DNA of 64,000 nucleotides from a virus. The translations under genes and the position numbers were made by a program. A model generated the notes under the pieces. That model was not told the origin of the DNA. It saw only the letters and a list, made by a program, of their open reading frames with translations, and made no database searches. The DNA is taken from the IMG/VR virus record IMGVR_UViG_3300017728_000002, positions 1 to 64,000 of that record; one strand, given 5' to 3'. Shown piece by piece: positions 5,821-63,200 of this stretch (position 1 is its first letter; every line of letters begins with the position of its first letter).

Positions 5821-6203
5821 GCTTTGTTTGAGATTTGATTGTGTCCAATAACCTTTAGGGGTTGCTGTAGAATGGTTCCTAAAGACAGGATCAACGCACT
5901 CATTGCAGTGTGTTGCTTTTCATTTAAAGTGTCTTTAGGGTTCATTGCTGCATCGCATCCTCCAGCATAACAAATGCCTATGCTTTGGCCGTTGTGTCCT
6001 TGCGCATGGGCTCCGACTTTGTCAATGTGCCGTCCGATATGAACGTTACCGTCTAGATCTATGAAATAGTGGTATCCCACCATATCAAAATCACGTGCTT
6101 TGTGCCACCTGTCGATGTCTTCGATGGTGACTTCACGGTTTTCAGGAGTGGCTGAGCAATGGATAACAATGGTGTGTATTGTAGAGAGTGGTCTTGTAGC
6201 CAT
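5751..6203 (-). CDS. N-acetylmuramoyl-L-alanine amidase (T7 lysozyme/Amidase_2 type endolysin)
   Basis: IVIHCSAT, GYHYFI, GAHAQGHN..SIGICYAGG, GH..KACPSFD Zn ligands; likely start MATRP at 6203 (track start 6260). Confidence 0.93.
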   Translation of the reverse strand: MATRPLSTIHTIVIHCSATPENREVTIEDIDRWHKARDFDMVGYHYFIDLDGNVHIGRHIDKVGAHAQGHNGQSIGICYAGGCDAAMNPKDTLNEKQHTAMSALILSLGTILQQPLKVIGHNQISNKACPSFDVQQKFLGEALLLERSVC

Positions 6204-8197: not shown

Positions 8198-8498
8198 CTT
8201 CTGTAAGAGTTAGTATGCGTATATGGGTTTGCTTTATGAGGTCCTGGCAAAGTGCGCAGTCCTCATATTGTTCTGTTTCTAGGTAAGCTTCAATGGCATG
8301 CTTGAGCGCCCAAGGCCATTGAGTGATTGAGTATTCGACGCTGAATGGGTCGCTTAAAGTCAACACGTGGATGTTGTTCTTTAAGCACTGTTGTACACCT
8401 TTGACTACGTACTGGATCCACTTGGTGCGGAGCCGCTGAGCAGTCTTAGGTTTAGGAGCATCTTGCTGATCGTCGTGATCAGGACTTAGAGTTTCCAT
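8148..8498 (-). CDS. Hypothetical protein with UVR-like (UvrB/UvrC) motif
   Basis: AIEAYLETEQYEDCALCQDLI resembles the UVR coiled-coil motif (A...E.YE.AA..RD.I). Confidence 0.6.
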   Translation of the reverse strand: METLSPDHDDQQDAPKPKTAQRLRTKWIQYVVKGVQQCLKNNIHVLTLSDPFSVEYSITQWPWALKHAIEAYLETEQYEDCALCQDLIKQTHIRILTLTEDELEKAKAIERRYQPR

Positions 8499-8991
8499 GG
8501 TTGATGTCAGATTCCGCTACATTCAAAGCATCCTCGAGAACCTGTACCGTAAAGAGCTTGCGCTGTTGTGGGTCGTTGGTAGCAGGAGCTTCAGACTGTT
8601 CCCACAGATCAAGGTCATCTTCGGTCAAGTCTGGTGGAGGCGGAGGTGGAGGAGAGTGCTTGAGAGACTCTATCTCTGCTTCTAATGCTGCTATGGCTCT
8701 GTGACTGAGTTCAAGATGATGCTCTAAGTCTTGGCCTGTTTCTAGCAAGCCATCGATAGAGTTCTTTAAGTCACGCTTGACAGCAATATGAAGCCGACCT
8801 TCCTTACGGATGGTGTTCAGGTCTTTGCGAAGCTTCTTGTTGACCTCGGAGAGCTCATTGATGTAGTCATCAATAGCTACGTAGCCGTCAGACTCCGCTT
8901 TAACGCGTTGCCGGTGTGCGAAATATGAAGCTGTTGCAGCTAGAATGACGCAAATGGACAAGATGATGCCCAAGTAAAACATGTTAATCAT
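8479..8991 (-). CDS. Membrane-anchored coiled-coil protein with poly-Pro
   Basis: N-terminal TM segment, heptad region, PPPPPPP run. Confidence 0.7.
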   Translation of the reverse strand: MINMFYLGIILSICVILAATASYFAHRQRVKAESDGYVAIDDYINELSEVNKKLRKDLNTIRKEGRLHIAVKRDLKNSIDGLLETGQDLEHHLELSHRAIAALEAEIESLKHSPPPPPPPDLTEDDLDLWEQSEAPATNDPQQRKLFTVQVLEDALNVAESDINHGNSKS

Positions 8992-9205
8992 GGTGTAAAG
9001 AATTAGAGAGTTTTAGTGTTTGAATGTTTATGCCTTGTGCTGTGGCATTAGGCTCAATACGGAACTCGTTGAACATGTACTGTCCGACGATGTCCTTAGC
9101 TTCAGTTGGGTCGGTAGCCCATACTATTAAACCGGTGGGGAGATTGTTTGTGATGATTGAATAAGCCTGCTTAGCAGACCGAATGCGTGTAGAGAGTAGA
9201 GACAT
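8984..9205 (-). CDS. Hypothetical early protein
   Basis: Likely start MSLLSTR at 9205, just downstream of the promoter motif at 9243-9255. Confidence 0.6.
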   Translation of the reverse strand: MSLLSTRIRSAKQAYSIITNNLPTGLIVWATDPTEAKDIVGQYMFNEFRIEPNATAQGINIQTLKLSNSLHHD

Positions 9206-9259
9206 GGTGTAGAGAAATGAAGGAACGCTACCCCACACCATAGTCTTCTTTTTACGATA

Positions 9260-10490
9260 TGGCGCGCATAGCGTATCGGGTGCTACTCAAAGGCAGCTAC
9301 ATTGTTTTTGCACCCTTATACAAGGGCTGTTCATGAGGAGTGTAAAAGGGGACGCCTTTGCGCCCCCTTCCACCTAACGACTTCGACCAATGACGACGAA
9401 GCCTACCTTTACCATGAGGGTGGAGAAAGAAGTAACTAAGCTATCAACACACCTATAGGGAGCTATCCTATAGTAACCTCGTGGTATACTGTGTGTCTTG
9501 CATGTGCACATACTGCTCTCCCAGTGACGTAAGCCCTGTTGTTATTGGAAAGCATACTTAGTTACTTCATTTGTATCTGTCGTAGCGTGCCTCGTCAGGT
9601 TTGCTACTAGTATTTCTAAGGTCTTCACCATTAAATAGATTTAAGCACATGCGTCCATGCACCGAGACGGTCAGTTATCTAAGCTGTTATCATTAGCTTG
9701 GTCACTAAATCCGGTTGTGTGACTCGCGGTCGTCAACCCGCCCAACAATGTCTATTCTACTTTGGTTGAAGAGGCCGATGTTGGACTGCCCCTGATGCTG
9801 TATGTAAAGGCAGCACGGCGAAACACCGCACTATATCTTCTATCAGTACTGCGTAGAGTACATCGTTGTTTCTCAGAGCTGCTAATCCTTAGGTTTGAAT
9901 AGAGCTATCTATTCCTAACTAGCATAACGTAAAACGATTGAAGACTGCCTATTCATGTTCCTTCAGCATTTGTGCGGGAGAGTGTACTGTGTCCGTAGAC
10001 GTCATAAACAGCTACACTCTCCCTAACCTGGTATACGTCAGGCTGACGTAGCAATCGAATAGATTCAGACATGAGAAGCGATTGCACCTCACATGTCCTA
10101 ATAGATAATGCACCCGAAGGCGACTTTTAGAATATGGACTGAATTGGATAACAAGGCACAGTCAAACCCCGTTTTTATAGACTTACACTATCAACACGCC
10201 TTCGAGTGATCAACTCTCCGTACCTATAATGGCAAACCCCTACTTTATCGGAGCTCCTGTCATGTCTTGCATCTAGAATACTGCTGGTCTTGGCTATATC
10301 CAGCACGTGTAAGTCCTGCCTTGTAGTAAGGCAGTTGTCGACGCAACCTCTGAATGACTTTAGAGAGTCAAACAGAGGCCACTTGTACGTTCAGGTACCA
10401 TTAGGTGATGGTTAATTTGGCTAACATCACCGACAAACCAAGAGGTGGCATAGCCTCTTATGCGTGTTTAAGTCCTGTCTAGACTACTCT
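9260..10490 (-). ncRNA. Candidate large structured non-coding RNA (or cluster of structured RNAs), family unrecognised
   Basis: ~1.2 kb with no ORF >=60 aa on either strand. More than 15 inverted-repeat stems (e.g. 9429-9440/9557-9568, 12 bp; 9976-9986/10013-10023, 11 bp), two pseudoknots and repeated motifs. Strand is inferred from arm orientation and a C.A mismatch that becomes G.U on the minus strand. Confidence 0.6.
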
Positions 10491-10507
10491 CAGTTGACTG
10501 ACTCTAA

Positions 10508-11200
10508 TCAGTCGGTTGAGAGCGTGGGGTACTCATCGGAGTCACTAACATGGTCAGTGTCTTGCCGATGGGAATCCTCTTTATCAAGTTCAGCTTGAAG
10601 CTGTCTATTTAGCGCCTCGTCACGTTCTGCTTCGACTGCGTTGTCTAAGCGGTGCTCCATCATAGCTTCGTTAAGCAGCCTGTCCTCCTCAAGGGCCTCA
10701 GCAACAGAAAGAGTAGTATCCTCATAGAAGGGAGTAACATTACCTTGCCTATCAAGAGACAAACAAAACCTATCATGCATCTTGTCTATAGTAGAGGAAG
10801 GAACATCATGGACAGAGATACCATCATGTCTGTTCTCCATGATGATGGTATGAATACGAAACTGCTGATCAGGTAGAAGCTCTTCATTGACTCGATTAGT
10901 GAAGTCAACGTAAGGCCACATCTCTTCAGTAGTGGTATTGGTGTTGTCTACAATGATGATACCGTCTGTATGCTTCATGTGCTTCATTTCATGAAGAGCA
11001 CAGATGAAGTCAGCTTGAGCTTGGGTATGGCAAGCAGCAAGCTTGGTAGCATCAAAGCAGTAGTTGCCAAAGTCATCAGTCATGAAGGTGTCAGCACTGA
11101 CGACACGCACGAAGCCCGGTGTGGACATGGCAACTAAGGTTTGAGCGAATGTGGATTTGCCTGAGCCAGGTAAACCGCGTAGGATGATTACTGTATTCAT
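10508..11200 (-). CDS. P-loop NTPase / polynucleotide-kinase-like (AAA_33, N4BP2-type) with acidic tail
   Basis: ILRGLPGSGKST Walker A, SAD.F, IIVDNTN, H.VP...I..M motifs. Confidence 0.85.
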   Translation of the reverse strand: MNTVIILRGLPGSGKSTFAQTLVAMSTPGFVRVVSADTFMTDDFGNYCFDATKLAACHTQAQADFICALHEMKHMKHTDGIIIVDNTNTTTEEMWPYVDFTNRVNEELLPDQQFRIHTIIMENRHDGISVHDVPSSTIDKMHDRFCLSLDRQGNVTPFYEDTTLSVAEALEEDRLLNEAMMEHRLDNAVEAERDEALNRQLQAELDKEDSHRQDTDHVSDSDEYPTLSTD

Positions 11201-11594
11201 ATGTTAAGGGTTAGAGAGTTGTATCTGAATGGGTATTGTATGGTGTAGAATTGTAATGCAGCATGTCAAAGAGCGGGTTGCTAAGTTGCATAATACAGAG
11301 TATTGTTTGGCTTGAGGTGCTTGCTAAGAAGGGGTGAAACAGGGTGTATATTGCTGCAACACACTCACAACCAATCAGTTAGGATGTGCATAACTCGTTA
11401 GCTTAAGCGGTATAGGCTTCTGTATAAGACTGCACCCCCCAAGCAAAGTCTTCTTTTAAAACCAGCAGTGCTTGGCAGCGTTTGGTAGTGCTTGTCAGGG
11501 CTTGCAGAGTAGTGCTTGCTAGGCCTTGCATGGGCTGGGCAGGGCTGAGCCTGGGCTACGCGAGGCTGGCTGTGTTCTTTTTAGCAACGCTAAA

Positions 11595-11986: not shown

Positions 11987-12177
11987 GGTAGTTGGGTGTG
12001 CCATTGGGATAGGTTTGCCCAAAGCACACGCTCCTGCACAGAAAAGTCTTCTTTTTAGACATCCAGTTACGTCTTTGAGAATCAAGCCACGTCTTCTTTT
12101 TACAACAGGTCGTCTTTGCCTCCATTGGGCTGGCGCCCGTGGTTGCTGCTCGGCTCTTAGCACGAGTGTGCTGCTTA

Positions 12178-12526: not shown

Positions 12527-12603
12527 GGTAAAAGGTTAACAGGAGCGACGTTGCCCCTGCTATCCCCGAGCAAAGCCATCTTTTTAGACATCCTATAAAG
12601 GGA

Positions 12604-12869: not shown

Positions 12870-12943
12870 CTATTAAAGCCTTCTTTTTAGACACCCTACA
12901 ACGTCTTTGCTGTGTTTGCTACGCACTCTCCATCCCACCCAAG

Positions 12944-13318: not shown

Positions 13319-13453
13319 GGTAAAAGAGTTGGCGCAAGCAACAGTGCTCACACACGCTCATCTCCATAAAAGCCATCTTTTTAGACACCCTCATAGGTGT
13401 CTTTGCTCTTCAGCCTCAGCACCCAAGTCGTATGGGAGCCGGCAGCACCCAAT

Positions 13454-13891: not shown

Positions 13892-14136
13892 AGCTCATCC
13901 CAACCGAAGTGCTCTTTTAACCCCAGGGGGTATCTGATGCTCCTCGCACTTGCGGGGGGCTTGATTCTAAGTGGTCCTCACACTCACTATTTTGAACTAC
14001 TCCCCCATTATTTTGAAGGGGGCTTTATATGTGTGTAAGAATCAAGGGGGTAGGGGGTACTTAAAGTCCTACGTATACGCCTACAAAACGTTGAATAAAA
14101 GAGCTGTATTACGTAATTGCGTGTTTTATGCGGAGT

Positions 14137-15716: not shown

Positions 15717-16790
15717 ATGCTTACGGTGTCAGAACCTTCTAAAGGAAAGCGTTGGAAAATTCGGATTACGGATATGGAAACCAAGAAATCCGTGGTTTTT
15801 GTGAGTGGCAGAGTCGTAGGTGACACCACCCGCCCCCAAGATTTAAGCGAAGACGGCAAGGAGAAGTACTTCTACTGGCTCAAACGCGCGCTAGAAACTC
15901 GTATTTCCACCGGCTGGACTCCTAAACAGTTTGCAGGAAAGCCTAAAAAGTCTGTTCAACGCACAGCCTGGGAGCTTGCAGTGGATCAAACTTTGAAGAC
16001 GATCAAAGGATTAGATCCTTGGTATGTGAAGCAAGTCCATCGACACGTAAATAGGATGATGGAAGACTTTGAAACGTTTCCTTCTCAAGACGAGTTTACT
16101 CGATTCATCAAAAAGCGTTTCAATACAGGCCGAACAACCATGCACATGGCCAAGCGTCGCTTCAGTGCGTTCTTCACCCATATGATCGATATGGAGTTGA
16201 TTGACTACAATCCTGCAGAGAAGATCAAAGTCAGAACTCCGCAACCCACACGCAACCATGTTTACACCAAACAACAGCTCAGGGATCTCTTTGCTTATTT
16301 AAAAGAGCACAGGCCTACCTTATATGTATGCTGCTACCTCACTTACAAACTTTTCCTACGGCCCCACAAAGAGATTCGGCTTTTGAGGTGGGAATACTTT
16401 GATTGGGACAACGAAACAGTAAACATCCCTCCTAAGTATTCTAAGAACCGCAAGCCTCGTACTCTCCCATTAGACCAGGAGACCATATATGAGTTAAAGT
16501 GGTGGGGAGTAGAAACCGAAGGCTTTGTTATGGGAAGGGAGTTCAACCCAGACTACTTTAAAACTCAGTGGGGCAGGTTACGCAAGACATATAAGCTTGA
16601 ACCCTACCAAACATTGTATAGTGTTCGGCACACTGCAGCTTGTTTGTTCTACAACGAACACAAGAACATCCATCAGTTAATGTTGGTTATGGGGCATGCC
16701 AGTACAGCCAGTACGTTGAATTACTTAAAAAATGCTCCTGTCCAACAGGCCGGCGTAGATGAGCTGAAAGTATTGAGCTTAAAGGAATAG
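15717..16790 (+). CDS. int: Tyrosine recombinase / phage integrase
   Basis: Catalytic R (LRPHKEI), K (SKNRK), YSVRHTAA, MGH and Y; core-binding NPA motif; 357 aa. Confidence 0.92.
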   Translation: MLTVSEPSKGKRWKIRITDMETKKSVVFVSGRVVGDTTRPQDLSEDGKEKYFYWLKRALETRISTGWTPKQFAGKPKKSVQRTAWELAVDQTLKTIKGLDPWYVKQVHRHVNRMMEDFETFPSQDEFTRFIKKRFNTGRTTMHMAKRRFSAFFTHMIDMELIDYNPAEKIKVRTPQPTRNHVYTKQQLRDLFAYLKEHRPTLYVCCYLTYKLFLRPHKEIRLLRWEYFDWDNETVNIPPKYSKNRKPRTLPLDQETIYELKWWGVETEGFVMGREFNPDYFKTQWGRLRKTYKLEPYQTLYSVRHTAACLFYNEHKNIHQLMLVMGHASTASTLNYLKNAPVQQAGVDELKVLSLKE

Positions 16791-51226: not shown

Positions 51227-54200
51227 ATGTCTGAAAACAACACTACTCCTGATTCTTCTTTTGAATCTCGTCAGGAAGACGCAGGGCTTACGCCTAAATC
51301 CAACATCCGTTTTGGCTTAAAACAAGACCCGCTCTATCAAGAGCAAGGGATGTTTCAAAGCCGTATGACCGAAAATCCGCAGGTCAAAGGAATAGACGTA
51401 CAGAAGTATGCCCCTTACACAGGGTACATTACCCACCTTGGCACGCGTGATGCTATGCGGGCACGTGGTCAAAGCGTTGCAGAAAAGTGGGGCAATGGAA
51501 TTTATCAAGCTGTAGTAGGCGAAGTAGTTGGGGGCAGTCTTCAAGGCTTAGGAGCCTTAGGTATGCTGGTTGACAGTGAGAAGAACTTTCTTTATGAGCT
51601 AGGTGAAGCCATCAATGAAGGAGCAAGAGACGCTACTCCTATTTATAAGCATAGCGACAAAGCGTTTGCGTTCAATGATGCTGGTTGGTGGGCCAGTAAT
51701 CTGGGCAATATTCTTAGCACTGTAAGTATGTTGGTGCCAGGTATGGCAGTGTCCAAAGGTGCAAGTCTAGCTGCTCGAGGTCTTGTTGCAGCAGGTAAAG
51801 CTGGCAAGGCTGTTAAAGCAGGAAAAACCATTGGCAAAGCTGGAAAGGTTGCAGGTAAGGCTGCAGGTGAAGCTGCTGACGTTACTGCAGATGCTATGAA
51901 AGCTTCTGTGCGCGCACAGCGGCTAGAAAAAACCATGCAAACAGTTGCAGGTGGTTATGGCATGCGTCACGCTGAAAACATTCGTGAAGGCGTAGATGTC
52001 GCTGTCCAAGCTGAGGAAGAGTTTATGCAAGATGGGCGGGCTTTAGAAGATTTTAAAGGGACTGTTGCGTACGATCAATACCTCAAGGATCACGATCAGA
52101 AAGCGCCTATGAACAAGCAAGAGCTTGCTTCGTATGTCGGAGGTCAAGCAGCAGTGCGTTCGTATCAATTTAACATGTTGAATCTGGTATTTGATGTGTT
52201 TCAAATGGGTACAATTTTTAAGCCCTTTAAAGCTGTAACGCGCGGTCAAGGTGTAGGTAAAGTAGGAGCTGCAGCCGCTGGTAAAGCAGCCGCTGGATTG
52301 GATAAAGGAACGCGTGCTACTCGAGCTTTAGAGAAAAGCAAAGGATTCTTAACTGAAGTGGGCAAAGCTGCTACAGAGGGCATAGAAGAGTCAATCAACT
52401 TTATGGGAAGTGGCGAGGGCATGGCCCGTGCAGAATATTTAAGAGGGGTAGAGACTGGAAGCTTTGGAGAACGTCTTGACGATTACTTCCACGACTCGCA
52501 CTTGTATGAAAGTGCTTTCTGGGGTTTCCTTGGAGGAGGAGTGTTTCAAGGTCTTGGGTCCATTATGGGCAAGAAGCAAGATGCTGCTATGACTTCTTTG
52601 CTTCGCCAGCAAGAAACCTTGGTTCGCGAAAGCGCAGAACTAGCCAAGGCTGAGAAAAGTGGCGATACAGAAAAAGCCAATCAAATTCGAGCCAGGGTAA
52701 TGGCTGATTTGGGCATCCGTGCTAGCCAATCTGGACGTGTAGATCAATTGCTAGATCAGCTCAATAGCGATGACTTCATGAAGCAGCTCCAAGAGCAAGG
52801 TCTGTTGGGCGAAAAGAGCATTGAAGAAGCTCGTAATGAACTGATTGAAGGCGTATTAAAGCAAGAAAAAGACTACAAGAAGATTGCTGAAGTTGCGGAA
52901 GAATACGGGTTGAGTAGTCAGGAAATGTTTGTCTTGCTTAAACAGCAGAACTCGTATGATGCTGGGTTAAAAAGCATTGCTGAGAAGCTTGAAGCAATTG
53001 ACGATGCAAGCATTACTGAAGATCAAAAGCTTGCAGCTAAGTTTCAGCTGCGCGATTCGTTGGTTGAGCTTCAGAAGAAGGTAAAAAAGGAAAAGGGCAA
53101 AGACTCAAAGACTCCGTTTGGAGCAGAGTTAAAAGCGTTGCAGGAAGAGCTTAAAGACAAGGAGAAGCCTGCTGAGTTTGAGAAACTGCTGACCTACGAG
53201 GCTTTCAATCAAGCAAGGTTGTTGGCCGAACAAACCAGGTTAAAGCGAAAGCGTGCTGAGCTTACTACTGAACAGTCTCTTGCATATACTCGAACTACAG
53301 TAAATGCGTACAACAAGAATCAAGAAAAAGTCATTGCTGCTAGTTTCAAAAAGAGAGTTGCTGAAGAAGAAAATCTAGATATTCTCAATAAACTTCTTGA
53401 ACAGGCCAAACGAAATAAAGCTAAAGACCAGGAAATACTAATATCTGAGCGCATTGCTGAATTGAAAAAAACCAATGCTGACAAAACAGATGCAGACAAA
53501 GCTCAAGAGGAAAATGAAGAAGGAGGTACTCCTGTACCTAAAGATGACTCTACTGAAGAAAATGAGCCTCCTACAGAAAATGAACCTTCTAAAGAGAATG
53601 AGCCTCCTGAAGAGAATGATCCTGATGTAAGTGATGTTCTACCTGAAGGAGTAGTTCTCGAAGATGATGACGAGGTAGACTACACCCTTGCTTATAGAGA
53701 GCCTTACGCTGATGGTTCTCCTTTTGATTTTGGTTCATTAACCAATCAGGAACGAAGGTTTTTAGATGCTTTAGATAACTTAGATACCGCTGAAACAGTG
53801 GAGAAAGCTCAAGCCCTTGTTTCTTTTGTACGCAACTACATTTTAAAGCAGCAAGAAGAAGGGAAGCCAATTAAACGCAAGTTTGATGGTAAAGTGGTTG
53901 ACCAGGCTATTGCATATTTAGCAGAGGCTGAAAAAACTCCACCAGCTGCACCACAAGATTCTGCACCACAAGATTCTGCACCACAAGATCCTACTTCGGA
54001 CCCACCTACAGACCTACCTACAGATGACTTAGAGAATAGTACAGTCAAGGCTTTGAAAGCCATTGCTCGTCAAGAAGGGTTGACAGGTTATTCTAAGTTG
54101 AACAAGGCAGAGCTAGTTGCTGCTATTCGTGCACATCGTGAGCAAGCTACTTTGTTTCCTGAAAATAAAGTAACTCCACCTACAGATGAATCGCCTGCTG

Positions 54201-57200
54201 AAAAGAAACGGAGAGAATCGCAGCAAAACCGTGTTGAGAAGCACAGCAAAGAACTTTATGAAGCGTTAGAAAGCTATGCAGAAGCTGTAGCTAATAGAGA
54301 TGCACTTCAAGATTCTAAGAATGCAGATAGTAAGGAAGCTGTTGCTGCTGAACTAGCCGCAGACAAAGCGGCAATGAAAGTGTTAAATGCCTTAAATAAT
54401 CTTACTAGTCACAGTCTGTTGTCTCAACAGAACAAAGTAGAAAGCTACATCTCTTCAGACTTACGTGAGTATATGGAGCTAGCTACAGAGACTTTAGAAC
54501 AAGATGGTTACACTTCAGATCATGTAAAACCTGGTCAAGTATATGACGAAACGTTGTCGGTAGATGTGGAGATTGTTAACGACGAAACTTTAGAGCCAGG
54601 AGTAGAACTTATTCAAAAAATTAATCAACCCGAAATACGTAAAAAAGGAAAGGTGATACAGCGTGGCCAAGTTGTTGTTGTACAAGGGCCTTTGCTGAGT
54701 AAGCCAGTTATTGAACCAGAAACAGTTGAAGCTCCAGAAGGTCAGATCAAGATGATCATGAATGACTTGATGGAAGCGTTTTTGCAGCAGATGCAAATTC
54801 GCACAAGCGTAACCATGCCTACTACGCGTGTTAGGGAACACGCTCTTATTGAAGGGACTCGCTTGACTTTAGAAGGGCCGGTGGCAGAGCAGTATGAAGC
54901 GCTCATGTTTGCCTTGACTAACCCGTCAGCATCGGTTACAATTCGCATTTCAGACAATCAAGTAGAGGTCAAAAACCCCATTTACAAAACATCGGTAAAC
55001 AACAAGCTTGGGGTCAAATCTTTGACGCGAAAGACTGTTGGGTCAAAGACGTATACCTACGAAAACGAAGAAGACAACTCTCCTGACTACGAGGTTGTCG
55101 TTGAGTATCAGGGTAAAACTGTAGTCATTGGAAATGTACCTAGGGTGGGTACGTTGTTGAAGCAAGCTTCGCGTCTTCAAAATCAATACCGCAATCAGCC
55201 AACAGGCGATGACGCAGACGCAAACCCATACTGGAGAAACGCATATGCAGATGCCAACCTCAATGCATTGCAAGCCATTAGACATGCAGATGCGATAGCT
55301 CTATTTAGAAAATATCTGGATTCTCAAGACAGCGGATCTATCTCGTTTACTGGGTTGTCTGAGCAAATTGCCCTAGACGGCAGCTTTAAGCGCGGTAGTC
55401 TGCTTCGTCCTAGCGATCAAATGGATACGCTAAATATGCATCCAGAAGTCACAGATGCCATAGACGAACACGGGCTGTGCGTCATGATGACTGATCCTTC
55501 TAGTGGAGAGCCTTATCTGTTGAATCTAAAAACGGGTTTAAAGACTGCAGTACCATACCAAGATGGTGTGATGGCTATGAATGCTCAAGCAGGGACTTAT
55601 GCGTTTAAAAACCAGTCTAACAAGATCTCTAGTACCGGAGCAGTTTTCATTCCTATCCGAGATCCCAACTCACCTTTAAAGCCAATGTGGGTTCGCATGC
55701 CCGACATGACTTTGAAAGAGGCCAATCGTACCGACTTTGTAAGCAACATCTTGTACGGACCAGGCACTTCAGAACAAAAGTTTGAATTGCTTCGAAGTGT
55801 AATGTCTACACCGCCTCCAAGTGTGACATCTGAAAGTCAGATCATGGAAGGGTTCACAGGCGCAGCTTTTATAAGCGGACCGTCTAATGGACAACCTCGA
55901 TTGGTTATTCTCAAAGACAGGAAGATTGTCATGGACTTTAATCCAGATGGCACGCCTCGCACTGAGATTCAAAAAGCTGTTCTTGAGCAGCTGAAGTTTA
56001 GGCTAGATGCAAAATCGCCCGAGCTTGCCAGCTACGAAAAAGAAGGAAAACGAGACGAGGAAACTAGGCAAACTTTAAAGTCGTTAGCTCAAAGCATTAA
56101 GCAAAACGGTAGAATGCCTATTGCTCCCGTTGTTAAAAAAGACAGTGCGGGTAATGATGTAATCATAGGCTACCACCATCCTGTTCCTGCTGCACGATTT
56201 GAACGAGACAGAGAAGCGCAATCTCAAAACCAACTGTTCAACCCAGAGGCTCAGAGTACCATGCTGCCTATTGCCATTGATATGGCACGTCTTCAAGCTC
56301 AAAACCCAGAAGCTCCTGCATCACCAGATACAAAACCTACAGACACTTCTGATCCGAAGAAGTCCAACGAAAAAGGGGGGGAGTCGACTGATTTTTGGAA
56401 TGAATCAGATGACGGTGCAATGTTTATGACTGTAGAAAAGGCTTTAGCAAGCGACTTTTACGCCATGTCTACCTCTAAAGATCAGTTAGAAGCGGAGTTG
56501 TGGCTTGCTAAAAACCTGCCTCACGTTCCGTTTCGAAGAGTCAAGGGCCTTATTGAACGTGGCGGTGTTACCGCATACGGTATATGGGAACAGGGTATGA
56601 TCAGGGTCAGTGATATATCTGTAGTAGGTACAGAGTATCACGAAGCCTTGCACGCTGTAATGGACACATACCTTTCTCCTAAGCGAAGAGCAAAGATTAT
56701 GGCTGAAGCCCGTGCTAAGTATGGAGACTTAGGGCCTATCAAGCTAGAAGAAAAGATTGCTGAGGCTTTTCGAGAGTACATGCTAACGGAAGGAAAAAGC
56801 ATGACAGAGAAAAGTGCACTGCGCCGGTTTTTCTCTGAGATACTGGCATTGGTTCAAGCCATGTTCCAAGGACAATACCGTACTCGGCAGTTGATGCAAA
56901 ACATCAACAGAGGGAGGTATGCGTATAAGCCTAGCCAGCGCTCTAAAAACTTTCTGACTAAGTTCAGTAAGGTTCCTGCCTTTGATGCTGCTGAAATGAG
57001 CGAGCTAGAGCAGGTCATGCCTTTTTTGGTAAACTACATCCTTAAAGACATTCGTGAAGCATTTGTAGGGAACAATCCAAAAGACGTGCTTATGCGACGT
57101 TATGGAAGGGAAGAAGACGCCCAAGTACTTGAAGGATTGCTCCAAACGATAGCAGAGATTAAAGACTTGTCTGTAGAATCAGATGAAGACGGAAATACAA

Positions 57201-60200
57201 TAGAAATTCAGCGAGAGAAAAAGAAGCTCATAGCTGAAGGTATTATTCGCGTAATTTTTGATAGTCGTGGGTTGTTCCAATACATGATTAAGTCTTCAAG
57301 TAGAGCGTCTGAAGAAAGAAAACTAGAGATCTATGATCGGTTAGGTCATAACGAAGAAGTACTGGTTGAACACTTCAGTACAAACCCAAGAGTGCAGCGC
57401 ATGATTATGCAAGCAATTGCAATTGATGCCAGCACAGGTACCACGGACATAGAGCAGAACTTCTCTGCTAGCATAGCAGAAATCAATCCTATGGATAAGG
57501 TTCCTGCCAGTATCAAGAACTTGATTTCAAGAACCATTTACATCCCTGGAGACAGAAGTGGTCGCTTGATTGAAACAATCTTAGGTAATCAAGGTACCGA
57601 AGCAGCTCTTGAAGCCATTGCAGAAGTGTCAGGCACTGACGTAGATAAATCTGATGCCTTCAGTCGATTTGGCTTGCCTCGGTTTTTACAGTTTGAAACG
57701 GTGTATCCTTTCCTGTTAAACCAGTTGAGTTCGCTGCCTTCATACGAAGCTATGGAAACCCGGATGCTAGAGTTGAGCGTGTACAACCCAAGCTTGGCAT
57801 CTATTGTTTTGGCATTGCGTAAAGACGCTGAGCCAGGCACACTTACAGAACTGCAAAAACAATTCTATGTGGGCATGAAACGCGCAAGCTCAGAAGAGCT
57901 GAACGTTTCTTTGGAAACCCAGTATGATGAAAGAGTTGAACGGAAATTTCAAGTACCTGTAGTAAAAGATGAGTTCATTTATGAACCGGCCTGGCATTTG
58001 GTCCAACGTAACAAGGAGGCTGTTTACAACGCCATCCTTCAGTTTACTCCAGCGGAAAAGGAAAAGGTCCTAAATGCTTTAAGTGCGTTGGCAAAACAGC
58101 GTAACGAAACTCCTGAAGTAAGAGTTAAAACCATTAAAATTTTGGTTAGGACTTTTCAAAAACTTGAGTTTTCTACTATGGACCCTTCTGCATTGGCTAA
58201 CGCTATGCATGTTATGTCTAATAATGAATTAGGCGGGTTAGCTGATATGCTTGAACGTCTCATTCTTGCTGGAAATGAAGCGCAGACTTCAGCAATACTT
58301 AGGGAGGTGGTACGAATTATGAAGCTTGCTGACGCAGACATGGGCGCAGTTCAAAGCTCGTATATGTCTAATCTGAAAACCAAGTATGCTCACGTCAATC
58401 CTTCTTATTTAACCGAAGAATTAGACCGCTTAAAAAGCGCCTTTAAAGAAGAATACCTTAAAGAAAGGTTTGCCCACAATGCTCATTTAGAAGAGAGTAT
58501 GTGGCATATTATGTTGGATGAAGAGTCTTTAACCTATCGCAGGTTTGGACAACTGGGCCCGCATGCATACACCGATATGGATGTAGCGCAAAGGCTTGAG
58601 TATGACCTTCTAGCATTGTTTAGAATGGGTAAAAATGCTCAAGGACGTCAGATCAGAGTTACGGGGTACTCTGCAATCCCTACACCTAGCGATGCAACTG
58701 GATCGTTTATGGTCAGTAACGACTTTGTACATTATCCTGAAAACGTTAAAAACAGGATTTTAGCCAGTATCTACGACGCAGAGACACGTAAAGACGTAAC
58801 CCATATGTCTTTGCCTATTGATCGTAGTAAAGTAGACATCAATAGCATAGAGTCTAAAGCCGAGTATATGCGTGCTTTGCTAGAGCAAGAAGCCGCGGCA
58901 TTGCTGTCTATTCCAGAGTTCAAAGAAGTCATAGACAAGCTACAAGTTCCTTTAGGGTATGGACCAGTCGAGGGACGCAGTCGAGATGAGGGCCGCGTTA
59001 CGATGGTCAACTCATATGTAGCCGCTACATATGTATCCAATTGGAACGTGTCTAATTGGATGGGTGGAACCATTGATCACTTTGGAGGAGACGTTACCAA
59101 GTATCAAAAGCGTTTTAAGCAGATTATGAGCCCTGGGCAAACCAGCGCAGATAAAGGCACGTTTAGAAACGTAACCATTGAAGATCCCGTAGTTTTTGAA
59201 GACTGGGCAACAGAAGTAGAGTACTCTGACAATGGCAAACCGGTTAAGAACGCGGACGGAACTTACCGTCGTATTCCATCTGCCATTGATCGTGCTGATG
59301 CACAGAGCTATGTAACGCTAGACTTTTGGGAGCGGATGCTTTCTTCTCATGGAGAGCTTACAGACTATAAGAAAGCGGTCATAGAAAAAGCCCGTAAAGG
59401 AGAGGCTCTAAGTGTGTCTGAGCGTTCAGTATTTGCTCCATACAAGCCCTTCTACTTTGGATGGGTTCAAGGCCAGCCGCACCAACTTAAAAACTCTGTC
59501 ATCCCACTTTTACCACCGGTCAAAGGTCAAGCTCCCATTAGCGTAGAACTAGAGGCTATGCGTAAGTGGATGGTACACCCAGATAATAAAGTAGATCAAA
59601 TCACTTTGAAGTCTGCGCACAAGGTGGGTGTGACCAGCAAGGCTACTTCTATGTTTCAGGATGGCAAGTTCAAAGCACCAGAGCCTGGGTACACTCAGTA
59701 CGACTTGCCCATGGAGTTCCACCGCAATCAAGTGTCTATTACAGAACACAACAACCACAATGGAACAGTAGGCTTGGGTACTCAAACAGGTCCAATCATT
59801 ATGTCTAACCTCAGGAATTATGAGGGGTTAGGGGAAGTACACATCCAAAAGTTGCTTAAGACAGAGCAACGCATGATGAACATGAAACTCAAGGAGCTTA
59901 AAGGCAAGCTCTTTGTACAAGGCACAGAATTAGGCAAGAACGGCGAGGAAGATGTAAGCAAGCGCACAGTTCCAGACGTAGCTCGTGTACGGCAGTATGT
60001 GCTAGACAACGTGCGTGATGATGTGCATCCAGCAGTTCTGGAAATTCTAAGCTCTCCCTTGGCTTCAGCAGGACGCATTAGTCCTTTGGTTGCTTTTGCG
60101 GTAAACCAAACTTTAGCAGCTGCCGTTCAAAAGGACTTTAAGAAGCAGAAAGTAACAGGCGGTATGCAGGTACAAATCTCTGATCTAGGCCATACCAATC

Positions 60201-63200
60201 CTACCACAGATGCGGACTTAAAAGGCATGCGTGTAGTAGGAAGTCAGCAAGAAGTTGAAGGTCCTTACACTTGGGACGACTCTATGGCTACAGATTTAAT
60301 TGTGGGGATGAATAACCGAGAGTTTGTAGTTGTAAAACTTGGAGAATCCCCAAAAACAGGTCGAGAACTAAATGCTGATGATTTTTTAAATGGACTTAAA
60401 GAAGGTTTTGAAGTCATAGACATGCATGGTAAAAAGCCTATGACCGTAGGCTTAGATTCAGCCATGGCTTCGTTAATGAAGCGAGATTTTGAAAAATGGT
60501 TAACTACTAAGAAAAATCTTAAAACACGTCCACAATCATTAGTTACTCCAGAATATATCAGTGACTATTCAGACCCAAAGCGAGAGCTGGCTCGCTACGT
60601 AAAAGAGCGTCAAACGAATAGAAAAGACTTTGAAGTTGATCCTGAACTAGAGTTGGCTTATGAATACTATCGATCTAAAGAGATTGATTCAGATAGGAAT
60701 AACGAGGCTTTTACGTCTTCTTCTTCTTCTCTGCCTACAGGACCAGAAAAAGTTGTAATGGCCGAGGTCAAGATGAACAGAAAGTTCTTGCCTAAGCAAT
60801 ACAGGGAAATGAGCATTGAAGAGATTCGTGCCATTGACCCTACACTGCTTGAAGTCATGGTCTATCGTGTTCCTGCAGAAGGAAAGAATTCTATGGCCAT
60901 GTGTAAGGTGGTGCAGTTCTTGCCTTCAGGTCAAGACGGCATGGTCATCCCCGCAGCTTTTGTAGCTCAAATGGGATCAGACTTTGACATTGACAAGCTC
61001 TTTGTGAATTGGAAGAAGGTGCCTAGGGAAGGCAGAGAGCTCAATGCTTACGACCGAGCAGCCAATAAGTTTTTTGATTTACAGAAGGATGTGCTGATGA
61101 ATCCTGAAGTGGTAAAGACAGAAGTGCTTGTACCACAGGGCTTTGAAACCATTAAGGCGTTTCGTACGGAGATGGCTACTGCCCGCAGGAAAGGAGGGGT
61201 TTCAGACATTGATGTCTTTGCTCAAAGACGTCCGTATAGTGCTTTGACTCACTTGCAATTGTGGTCAGACAATGTAGCAGGCATTGGATTGAAAGGCATT
61301 GCTGCCAACAACAATACGTTTTGGATGAAAGTCCAACGTCACAACATGCAAGTGGAAGGAATTCCTATGAAGGATATGCCGCTTGAGTTGATGCAATGGA
61401 ATGCAGAAGCAGTAGCTGCTTCTATGGACGGCGCAAAAGACCCTGTCTGGGGTACTATGGGCATTGACCGCAAGAACTTCTCGTTCTTCATGTACGAGTG
61501 TACCATGGGGTACATGCGGGCAATGAAAGAGAACCCAAGTGCAGACAAGGTTAAAACCTTGAATAAAGCTCGAAATGAAGCATTAGCGGCAGCAACTGAT
61601 TCAGATGTTATGCAAGCCATGACCACACGGGTTAATGACTTTAATGCAGAAACAGAAAAGACAGACAACGTAAAACGGTATCAGGCTTATTTAAAGCAAG
61701 AGGCATACCGGGCGTTGAAAGACTTGACCCGTGTCAGTGAGATGAAAATCAATAAGGAGTTGATTGATCTTCTTGCAGCTAAAGAGCCCGTTCTAGATAA
61801 TTATAACCTTACTCTAGACGCTGAAGGCAATATTATTTTAGACAGCGATGGTAACCCAGAGTTGCAAGCGGTAAAAGACGCCAAAGGAAACACTCTTCCA
61901 ACCATGGGAAAGGCTTATGTCAATGCTCCTGTCATTAAAGGCGCTTTGGATATTGCCACTGCTTCAGAGTTGCTGATGAGTGGCGGTATGGGGATTCACT
62001 ATTACCGCACTGTAGGTCGTTATAACGGCATCAGTTTCCCGCAATACTGCGCGGTTCAAACCTTTAAAGCAGCTGATGAATTTGTAGAAGGCAAGCGCGC
62101 AGAGGTCATGGGTGAGAGAAGCGTCAGTGAGCGTTTTAGAGAAGTGGACCTAGAGGATGTTCAGTCTTGGAACATGCGTCATTGGATCGTTTGGTTGAAT
62201 ACATCTGACGAAGGCCGAGCAATTCGAGACGACAAAGACAACGCGTTCTTGCGTAAGATGCTCTTGCATATCACGGTAGGCCGAGCCTACGAAGTAAACT
62301 ACAATCGTTACGATCGGATAACGCCAATCCAGCTTAACGACCCTATCAAAGCAGAAGAGTTTCAAAAGGCTTGGGAAAACACATTGACTCCGCCTTTATC
62401 CTATGAAGGGTCTGTTCACTACCCTTCTGAGTTTGCCAAAGCCTTAGTTCGCTACGAAGCTGCACGCAGTGGGTGGAGACGAGGGTCTTCAACCTTCACG
62501 CAGTTCTTGCCTACGGAGATTGTAAAAAATGTAAGCGGAGAGGACGCTACATCCTTGCAGATTGCAGCTCATGCTGTGTTGGATTCTAGGGTAGAGTCCG
62601 GTACAGAAAAAATGGCTTTGCTCAGCAACAGGCCTATGCGCTATGGTAAGCACACTTACGTGACTTTGCCTGGCGAAAACAGGCGGACAAAAGTGACCAC
62701 TCCTGTTTTGATGCTTGGGTTCAGAGGCATGTCATCTATAGATGCTATTGCAGGTGAGTTGCAGGTCAACCAATCCACTGTAGAGGAAGAGATAGCTGAG
62801 TACAAAGCCAAGCAAAAGAAGAGTCAAAGCCTTGAAGCATTTGGAGATATTGCTTCATCTACTACTACTTCTGAGCGCATTGCTATGCTTCAGAGTCGGT
62901 TTGCTTCTTATGGTATTAAGGTAAGAGTGGAGTTTGATTCCACTTTAGAAGGTGCCGGTGATGTGCAGTACGATAAGGAGTCTGGGGTCATTCGACTCCA
63001 CCCTGATCGCATGAAAAGCGATACGGTCTTGCACGAGTTTGGTCACATCTACATTGAGATGTTGGGGTTTGAAAACCCTGCTGTTCAGCAAGCCATTGAA
63101 GAGTTGCGCAACACTGAGCTGTATCGAGAGGTAGCAGAGATGTATCCACACTTAAGTCAAAGAGACTTAGATATGGAGGTTTTGGCTACAGCTATAGGTC

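Follow-up and report, generated by a model that had tools for sequence, protein, structure and literature searches.

A predicted family of small four-way-junction RNAs in a mosaic, gene-free island of a marine phage

Introduction

Because phage genomes are densely packed, a stretch of a kilobase that holds no gene comes at a cost and is probably under selection. The genome considered here has a single kilobase-scale stretch of this kind, a densely paired, ORF-free gap of 1.27 kb (9242-10507) between minus-strand genes, and a first-pass annotation of the sequence had drawn attention to a closed domain of 140 nt inside it that appeared to repeat five motifs from the rest of the gap. The questions raised by this locus are what the domain is, why parts of it recur, and what a gap of this kind may be doing in a phage genome.

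All coordinates refer to the window, i.e., the whole stretch of DNA that was analysed (64,000 nt). It makes up the first 64 kb of a viral contig that is 85,481 bp long and carries direct terminal repeats. The large terminase and the major head protein encoded in the window match crAss-like families. Among cultured phages, the Flavobacterium phages of the FpV4 group come nearest (39% terminase identity), and the public runs that contain sequence of this phage are seawater or marine viromes.

The gap and its flanking genes

The gap is bordered on one side by a gene whose product matches both a P-loop kinase family and a PHROG annotated as polynucleotide kinase, making a link to RNA repair or processing conceivable, and on the other side by small minus-strand ORFs running from 9241 downward. 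A repeated motif of this early region, probably its promoter, is found upstream of small minus-strand ORFs. The features flanking the island are as follows.

10508-11200, minus strand: AAA_33 P-loop kinase-like gene (Pfam AAA_33, 4.9e-10), just upstream of the island
9243-9261, 11440-11465, 12038-12063 and 12083-12108, minus strand: repeated motif ..TAAAAAGAAGRCTTT.., upstream of small minus-strand ORFs
12567-12592, 12870-12896, 13364-13390 and 13901-13926, minus strand: further copies of the TAAAAAGAAGRCTTT motif, co-oriented

One copy of the motif sits just past the terminator-like hairpin that ends the island, and no copy lies within the gap itself, where a sigma-70 promoter scan also gave nothing useful and no promoter was recognised. 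A hidden gene, or one opened by stop-codon reassignment, can be set aside, since TAA, TAG and TGA are all present in every one of the six frames (9200-10550) and no recoding would open the gap. ARAGORN called no tRNA in the window, a comparison of the gap with GenBank phage DNA returned no match, and single-protein scans with the two flanking proteins found no relatives.

A closed domain with a four-way junction

The 12-bp closing stem and the closed domain of the first-pass annotation (9429-9568, here domain 1) are indeed present where it had placed them, and the fold is far above chance. On the minus strand the minimum free energy (MFE) is -51.5 kcal/mol (z -5.0), and on the plus strand -44.8 kcal/mol (z -3.5). 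The ends form a terminal inverted repeat of 15 nt, 93% complementary (9426-9440 / 9557-9571). In the predicted structure a closing stem of 12-13 bp, P1, leads into three arms, P2, P3 and P4, with two hairpins, P5a and P5b, carried within P4. The parts of the domain and the sequence behind it are listed here.

9429-9568, minus strand: domain 1, the four-way-junction RNA, 140 nt; RNA position i is window position 9569 - i
9556-9568, minus strand: 5' strand of P1, pairing with 9429-9441
9429-9441, minus strand: 3' strand of P1, pairing with 9556-9568
9514-9554, minus strand: arm P2 (UGCU../..AGCA) with its extension P2a, variable in length
9500-9513, minus strand: hairpin P3, GUAUG-UGCA-CAUGC, 5 bp, part of motif 4
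9446-9497, minus strand: helix P4 (GACACAC/GUGUGUU), enclosing P5a and P5b
9476-9485, minus strand: P5a, within P4
9453-9473, minus strand: P5b with the loop RUAGCUN, within P4; its G.U wobbles are A.C on the plus strand
9442-9445, minus strand: linker J4/1, GAUA (GAYA in the family), forming motif 1 with the 3' strand of P4
9372-9428, minus strand: 3' tail, a pyrimidine tract and ..AUGGUA.., with a small hairpin P6
9346-9369, minus strand: terminator-like G+C hairpin, perfect in the alignment, with UUUU behind it

The hairpin at 9346-9369 has too few T for a consensus terminator scan. A minus-strand ORF inside domain 1 (MCTCKTH..) is not coding, as it is truncated or frameshifted among the homologues described below.

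Homologues and covariation

Homologues were found by a pattern scan of viral and metagenome contigs with motif 4, one of the recurring motifs. Together with the window, the marine viral and metagenome contigs L039 (=L076), L053 (=L080), L059, L065, L066, L073, L079 (=L074) and L075 provide nine distinct domain 1 sequences, which represent only about six independent lineages. The homologues are 84-97% identical over the matched part, whereas the neighbouring genes, apart from a few distant shared ones, are for the most part unrelated between the contigs or alike at only about 50%; conservation of the domain thus far exceeds that of its surroundings. By its own MFE, each of the nine distinct sequences folds into the same architecture. 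This agreement of independent folds matters because an alignment fitted to a model leans towards that model. On a plain MAFFT alignment, RNAalifold recovered P1, P3, P4 and P5b, with seven compensated pairs.

The model-fitted alignment comprised eleven sequences including two paralogues, and 96.8% of its pair cells are paired. Both sides have changed in 25 of 49 pairs, against 11.0 +/- 2.1 in shuffles (0/500), and controls in which the partner was slid gave 2-4 such pairs. Among the homologues, 12 of the 13 pairs of P1 have changed on both sides, and the P1 sequence is wholly different yet still pairing in L079 (AGACCAAACACG / CAGUGUUGGUCU) and in the L039 group; for P2 the corresponding count is 4 of 8. 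P1 measures 10-13 bp across the homologues and is followed by one linker base before P2. The P2a extension is absent from L073 and the L039 group, and a short loop caps P2 in L073, L039, L053 and L075.

The interior of the domain is far more constant. The P3 stem is invariant in all type-1 homologues, with a single loop change in L066, and the linker AA joins P3 to P4, giving a nearly invariant junction core that reads AGCAG-P3-AA-GACA...UGUU-GAYAG. P4 is likewise invariant in the orthologues and covaries in the paralogues, so the covariation support for P3 and P4 comes only from the two paralogues. Behind most type-1 copies the sequence of the 3' tail is kept, and the short ORFs that start at its AUG vary in length and frame between relatives. 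Covariation between the loops of P5a and P2a, as a sign of a pseudoknot, was sought among the homologues and no pattern was found.

The two closest near-complete relatives of the phage by DNA polymerase, L003 and L004 (70% and 65%), are both without the domain, and no copy of the family occurs in the records L003, L004, L016 and L018. A covariance model, R2, run over 511 kb of loci returned none beyond the twelve hits known from an earlier model, R1, and four further contigs fetched with a pattern for module E (described below) contained no family copy. A pattern scan of bacterial genomes gave chance matches only, and R2 had no match in 151 sampled Bacteroidia genomes, a small sample that says little. 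Taking fold and comparison together, we conclude that 9429-9568 corresponds to a real, conserved and self-contained RNA domain of about 140 nt with a predicted four-way junction, encoded by the minus strand.

The coding strand, and a DNA-level alternative

The assignment to the minus strand rests on wobble pairs. In the alignment, G.U pairs that exist only on the minus strand occupy 55 cells in 15 pair columns, while A.C cells, which would be G.U if the plus strand were used, number 5 in 3 columns. This asymmetry indicates a minus-strand RNA. A U.G pair of P3 is likewise possible on the minus strand only, and the minus-strand reading agrees with the better fold, the flanking genes and the terminator-like hairpin. 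The plus-strand reading of the first-pass annotation is thus overturned, and its motifs as first written are the complements of the functional sequence. Assembled contigs from RNA libraries (X6, X18 and X20) span parts of 9577-10154, outside domain 1.

The same data bear on the idea that the stretch works as DNA, as a miniature inverted-repeat mobile element, a recombination cassette, an origin or an operator. Such a reading would suit the 15-nt terminal inverted repeats, a 10-bp palindrome in the domain (ATGTGCACAT), and the differing neighbourhoods and fairly sharp borders in related phages, as in the X18 relative, which joins 9577 onward to other sequence. However, conservation is lowest at the termini, which covary, and the interior is invariant, which is the opposite of what a mobile element would present; no target-site duplication is seen at the borders; and the family has only two copies per genome, both in the 85 kb of the window phage and in L073. 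The excess of 55 G.U over 5 A.C cells, moreover, has meaning only where one strand is read as RNA. On these grounds a miniature inverted-repeat mobile element was rejected, and we give hardly any credence to a DNA-level element as a whole.

A diverged second copy explains the recurring motifs

The first-pass annotation had listed five motif pairs shared between domain 1 and the rest of the gap, all in direct orientation and in a different order. All five pairs are present as listed, though not all of them exceed chance. Domain 1 has ten 8-mers in common with the rest of the gap, where 3.2 are expected (reached in 11 of 1000 dinucleotide shuffles), and two 10-mers, where 0.22 are expected (44 of 1000). 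When the gap is divided, the stretch 10177-10319 accounts for seven shared 8-mers, against 0.48 expected (1 of 2000), and the remaining 983 nt of the gap for three, against 2.68 expected, i.e., chance. As the excess lies entirely in 10177-10319, only motif 1 and motif 4 recur beyond chance, and by k-mer count motifs 2, 3 and 5 do not. In the fold, motif 1 (CTATCAACAC) is the end of P4 with J4/1, and motif 4 (TGTCTTGCAT-n5/6-ATACTGCT) is P3 with J3/4 and the start of P4.

The second copies of these two motifs lie 750 nt from domain 1 in a second domain.

10177-10319, minus strand: domain 2, a diverged four-way-junction paralogue, closed by 10179-10188 / 10307-10316

A perfect 9-bp stem (10180-10188 / 10307-10315) closes domain 2, whose own MFE structure has the same junction. 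A covariance model search retrieves it, along with the copies in L073: with R1, a model built from six type-1 orthologues only and with domain 2 left out, domain 1 scores 170 bits, and domain 2 matches over its full length with 22.9 bits (E 2.6e-5 in an unfiltered 2-kb search, E-values being rough as the models were short-calibrated). A second copy in L073, located right behind the first, scores 24 bits, and the best unrelated match in 332 kb of loci on both strands 10.6 bits. Domain 2 retains AGCAG, the base of the P3 stem, AA, GACA...UGUU and GAUAG, and its P1, P2 and the rest of P4 covary. P4 reads GACAUG/CGUGUU in domain 2 and GAAUCAG/CUGAUUU in the second L073 copy.

The sole reason for the recurrence of motifs 1 and 4 is therefore that 10177-10319 is a diverged paralogue. 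What the first-pass annotation took for recurrent modules or a compact paralogue is, for two of its motifs, the junction core of a fold that occurs twice. The second copy differs little in size from domain 1, so it is no larger fold of which domain 1 would be a compact version, and motifs 1 and 4 keep one and the same order in both places. Among the homologues, motifs 1 and 4 are invariant, as is the UAGCU loop of motif 2, which is found in all homologues. Motif 3 is kept in part, GGTATAC being replaced by GGATTCC in the L039 and L073 types, and motif 5 is not kept (TGACGTA appears as TGACATA, TGACAAAA and TGACTGAA). An AUAGCU loop also caps a hairpin of module C; with the sharing of motif 2 at chance level by k-mer count, a loop-loop contact between the two is just a possibility.

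Across eleven sequences including the two paralogues we thus find a common core (AGCAG / P3 / AA / GA..UU / GAYAG) together with covariation of the helices around it. Domains 1 and 2, as predicted from these comparisons, are members of a previously undescribed family of small RNAs with no Rfam match.

The gap as a mosaic of modules

Domains 1 and 2 are accompanied in the gap by further blocks that recur in relatives. In RNA orientation, the order in the window is E, domain 2, D, C, B, domain 1, tail and terminator-like hairpin.

10342-10516, minus strand: module E, a conserved non-coding block immediately behind the kinase-like gene's stop codon
9976-10023 (9978-10027 in the module order), minus strand: module D, a hairpin whose stem measures 11 bp, conserved in L004, L059 and L079
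9809-9949, minus strand: module C, a self-closed domain of about 140 nt (GGCAG...CUGCC), about 94% identical in L073
9577-9668, minus strand: module B, between C and domain 1 in RNA order
L059:585-669, plus strand: tRNA-like element with an 8-bp acceptor stem, a T-arm GUGG-UUCGAUU-CCAC (GGUUCGAUUCC) and an encoded CCA
L004:4204-4397 and 5838-5914, L003:3117-3205 and L059:4447-4743, on the strand of the RNA modules: tRNA-Leu(UAA), tRNA-Arg(UCU) and tRNA-Met(CAU) in or near the island of relatives

Module E is 77-80% identical to its counterparts in L004 and L079/L074, where the adjacent genes are not alike; it has several hairpins, some with compensated changes, and probably encodes another RNA of its own. 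It adjoins tRNA genes in L004 and domain 1 in L079. In module C, the hairpin 9897-9914 bears the AUAGCU loop, which is the second copy of motif 2, and relatives of the module with four changes are found in X20, from an RNA library, and in X18, labelled RNA-Seq, the RNA status of which is a guess. The change T9913C in these relatives keeps its pair as G.U on the minus strand only.

The surroundings of these modules differ from phage to phage. In L079, domain 1 is followed directly by E and D, and in L073 by the domain-2-like copy and then C. In L059, module D lies about 100 nt before domain 1, and right behind domain 1 stands the tRNA-like element, in which a long hairpin replaces the D and anticodon arms and which neither ARAGORN nor Rfam called. 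In the X18 relative, the segment corresponding to 9577-9668 is joined straight to a gene start, without domain 1. In L004, tRNA-Leu(UAA) and tRNA-Arg(UCU) precede E by 157 nt and tRNA-Met follows D, with one strand common to all of them, and L003 has a tRNA-Leu in the equivalent gap. On one side the island is bounded by a conserved gene, which in the window occupies 8479-8991 and is 32% identical to an ORF of L079. The 1.27-kb gap is thus a mosaic: its self-closed modules vary in order and content from one relative to another and, because the order differs, behave like interchangeable cassettes in a tRNA-type island.

This mosaic weighs on the proposal that domain 1 is only a part of a single ornate RNA of about 1.2 kb that covers the whole gap and works as one large particle, folded or multimeric, of the GOLLD or ROOL type. 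These are large phage and prophage RNAs of unknown function that are often found near tRNA islands (10.1101/2024.12.08.627333). That location, the dense pairing of the only kilobase-scale ORF-free stretch, and the AUAGCU loop common to the hairpins of domain 1 and module C would all accord with the proposal. The order of the modules, however, varies from E-dom2-D-C-B-dom1 in the window to dom1-E-D in L079 and dom1-dom2'-C in L073, and a single conserved tertiary architecture would not survive such shuffling. Each module, moreover, is closed by a terminal helix of its own, the domain is absent from L003 and L004, and the gap has no Rfam match to GOLLD or ROOL, so that we regard a single RNA of this kind as distinctly doubtful.

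Comparison with known RNA families

A search of the 64-kb window against Rfam 15 gave no match at gathering score, including GOLLD, ROOL, riboswitches, ribozymes, Y-like RNAs and tRNA. At E <= 10 there was nothing relevant, and only two models touch 9300-9620: STnc320, with 14.2 bits against a gathering score of 50, and the HDV-like drz-agam-1 (RF01787), with 24.8 bits against a gathering score of 37 for 9366-9442 on the minus strand. The domain is not a tRNA, given that there is neither an ARAGORN call nor an RF00005 match and that neither the lengths of its arms nor its loops resemble those of tRNA.

The drz-agam-1 match raises the possibility of a new self-cleaving or otherwise catalytic RNA in a tRNA-type island, which would cut the polycistronic transcript. 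Invariant junction nucleotides surrounded by covarying peripheral helices are what small ribozymes also present. The match itself, on the other hand, falls short of the gathering score and lies partly on P1, with which it competes. It does not recur in relatives either, as a search at E <= 1 turned up nothing HDV-like in L066, L065, L073, L059, L079, L075 and L039, and we consider it spurious. As no known ribozyme core was matched in Rfam either, a catalytic role appears very improbable.

The sequences next to the domain speak to a further alternative, in which it would be a cis-acting intercistronic element of a polycistronic minus-strand mRNA, i.e., an RNase III-type processing site, a stabiliser or a leader. 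In L065, L066, L073, L039 and L075, the domain starts a few bases past the upstream ORF, and the next ORF comes just after the conserved pyrimidine tract and hairpin that follow the domain; in L065, L039 and L075 it lies between two co-directional genes, a placement that suits a cis element; and P1 stacked on P2 would give a helix of about 20 bp. What follows the domain, though, differs: a terminator-like hairpin and no gene in the window, E and D in L079, the tRNA-like element in L059, and unrelated small ORFs in L065 and L039. There is accordingly no consistent adjoining gene, and a riboswitch or leader was rejected because the domain has no constant position before one gene family and the following sequence varies. 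The 29-nt invariant core and the invariant loop also exceed what a processing stem needs. A cis-acting element is, on balance, rather unlikely; were the domain just an mRNA processing element, it would be an ordinary one.

Discussion

We consider it reasonably probable that domain 1 belongs to a new family of small stable phage RNAs that reside in a tRNA-type island and have a specific partner in trans. With the early-region motif absent from the gap and a terminator-like hairpin placed after domain 1, we infer that the island would share a transcript with the minus-strand genes around it, one that extends from the kinase-like gene (10508-11200) to the hairpin (9346-9369). Each closed module could then be released, or persist, as a stable small RNA in the way that the tRNAs of such islands do. 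The RNA may act in trans, its invariant core and loop binding a specific partner, for which a protein and, through the self-complementary loop, another copy of the RNA would both be candidates.

A more specific proposal takes the island to be an array of interchangeable RNA cassettes occupying the slots of tRNA genes, with the four-way-junction family serving either as a decoy or inhibitor or in an RNA-only assembly. A decoy, encoded next to a polynucleotide-kinase-like gene, might occupy a host factor that attacks tRNAs or other phage RNAs, and an RNA-only assembly might form through the invariant self-complementary UAGCU loop and the GUGCAC hairpin. For a decoy or sponge, as suggested in the first-pass annotation, the analyses speak neither for nor against. 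We regard this proposal of cassettes as improbable; if true, it would give the GOLLD/ROOL class a counterpart that is small and modular.

Several known systems invite comparison with the family of small trans-acting RNAs that we favour. Like GOLLD and ROOL, domain 1 is a phage-encoded non-coding RNA, as predicted, with an elaborate covarying structure, a tRNA-gene island in relatives, and self-complementary hairpin loops that could kiss. Unlike them, it measures about 140 nt rather than more than 500 nt, has a simple four-way junction and no Rfam match, and comes as independent shuffled modules with two paralogous copies instead of one conserved giant fold. Among the tRNA genes of the lytic phage T4 are the small stable RNAs 'species 1' and 'species 2', of about 120-140 nt and unknown function, which are co-transcribed with these genes and processed by the tRNA machinery. 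Domain 1 resembles them as a small RNA in a tRNA-type phage island, a likeness drawn by description alone, and differs in that neither a CCA-like 3' end nor a T-arm is seen in it. The pRNA of phi29 is an RNA of about 120-170 nt whose 5' and 3' ends pair to close a multi-helix junction and whose copies engage in loop-loop pairing; it forms a three-way junction with two complementary loops and belongs to phages with a pRNA-dependent packaging motor. Domain 1 shares with it the small size and the multi-helix junction closed by the ends, but has a four-way junction, occurs in a phage with an ordinary large terminase, and bears no sequence relation to it. With the HDV-like drz-agam-1, the only likeness is the weak match directly behind the domain.

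Domain 1 represents a proposed new family within the broader kind of phage RNAs found at tRNA islands, and belongs to none of the systems compared. It is separated from GOLLD and ROOL by the lack of a covariance-model match, by its much smaller size and by its different fold. Its unusual feature is that it is one of several shuffled small modules. A gap that seemed empty resolves into discrete, conserved and covarying RNA modules that swap places and that in relatives stand among tRNA genes. The family adds a structured RNA to the Crassvirales of marine Bacteroidota, for which our literature search turned up no described non-coding RNA. Its 140-nt RNA, in which the junction core is defined and one loop is invariant, and of which natural paralogues exist, also offers a compact and testable system for the question posed by GOLLD, ROOL and the T4 RNAs, namely what the phage RNAs of tRNA islands do. 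If the function proved to be anti-defence or self-assembly, the interest would be wide.

Two observations concern the genome outside the island. The crAss-like genome encodes a tyrosine integrase at 15717-16790 on the plus strand (Pfam Phage_integrase, 6.3e-14). An ORF of more than 4258 codons occupies 51227-64000 on the plus strand and runs off the window; it presumably encodes a giant virion protein or RNA polymerase of the type typical of crAss-like phages.
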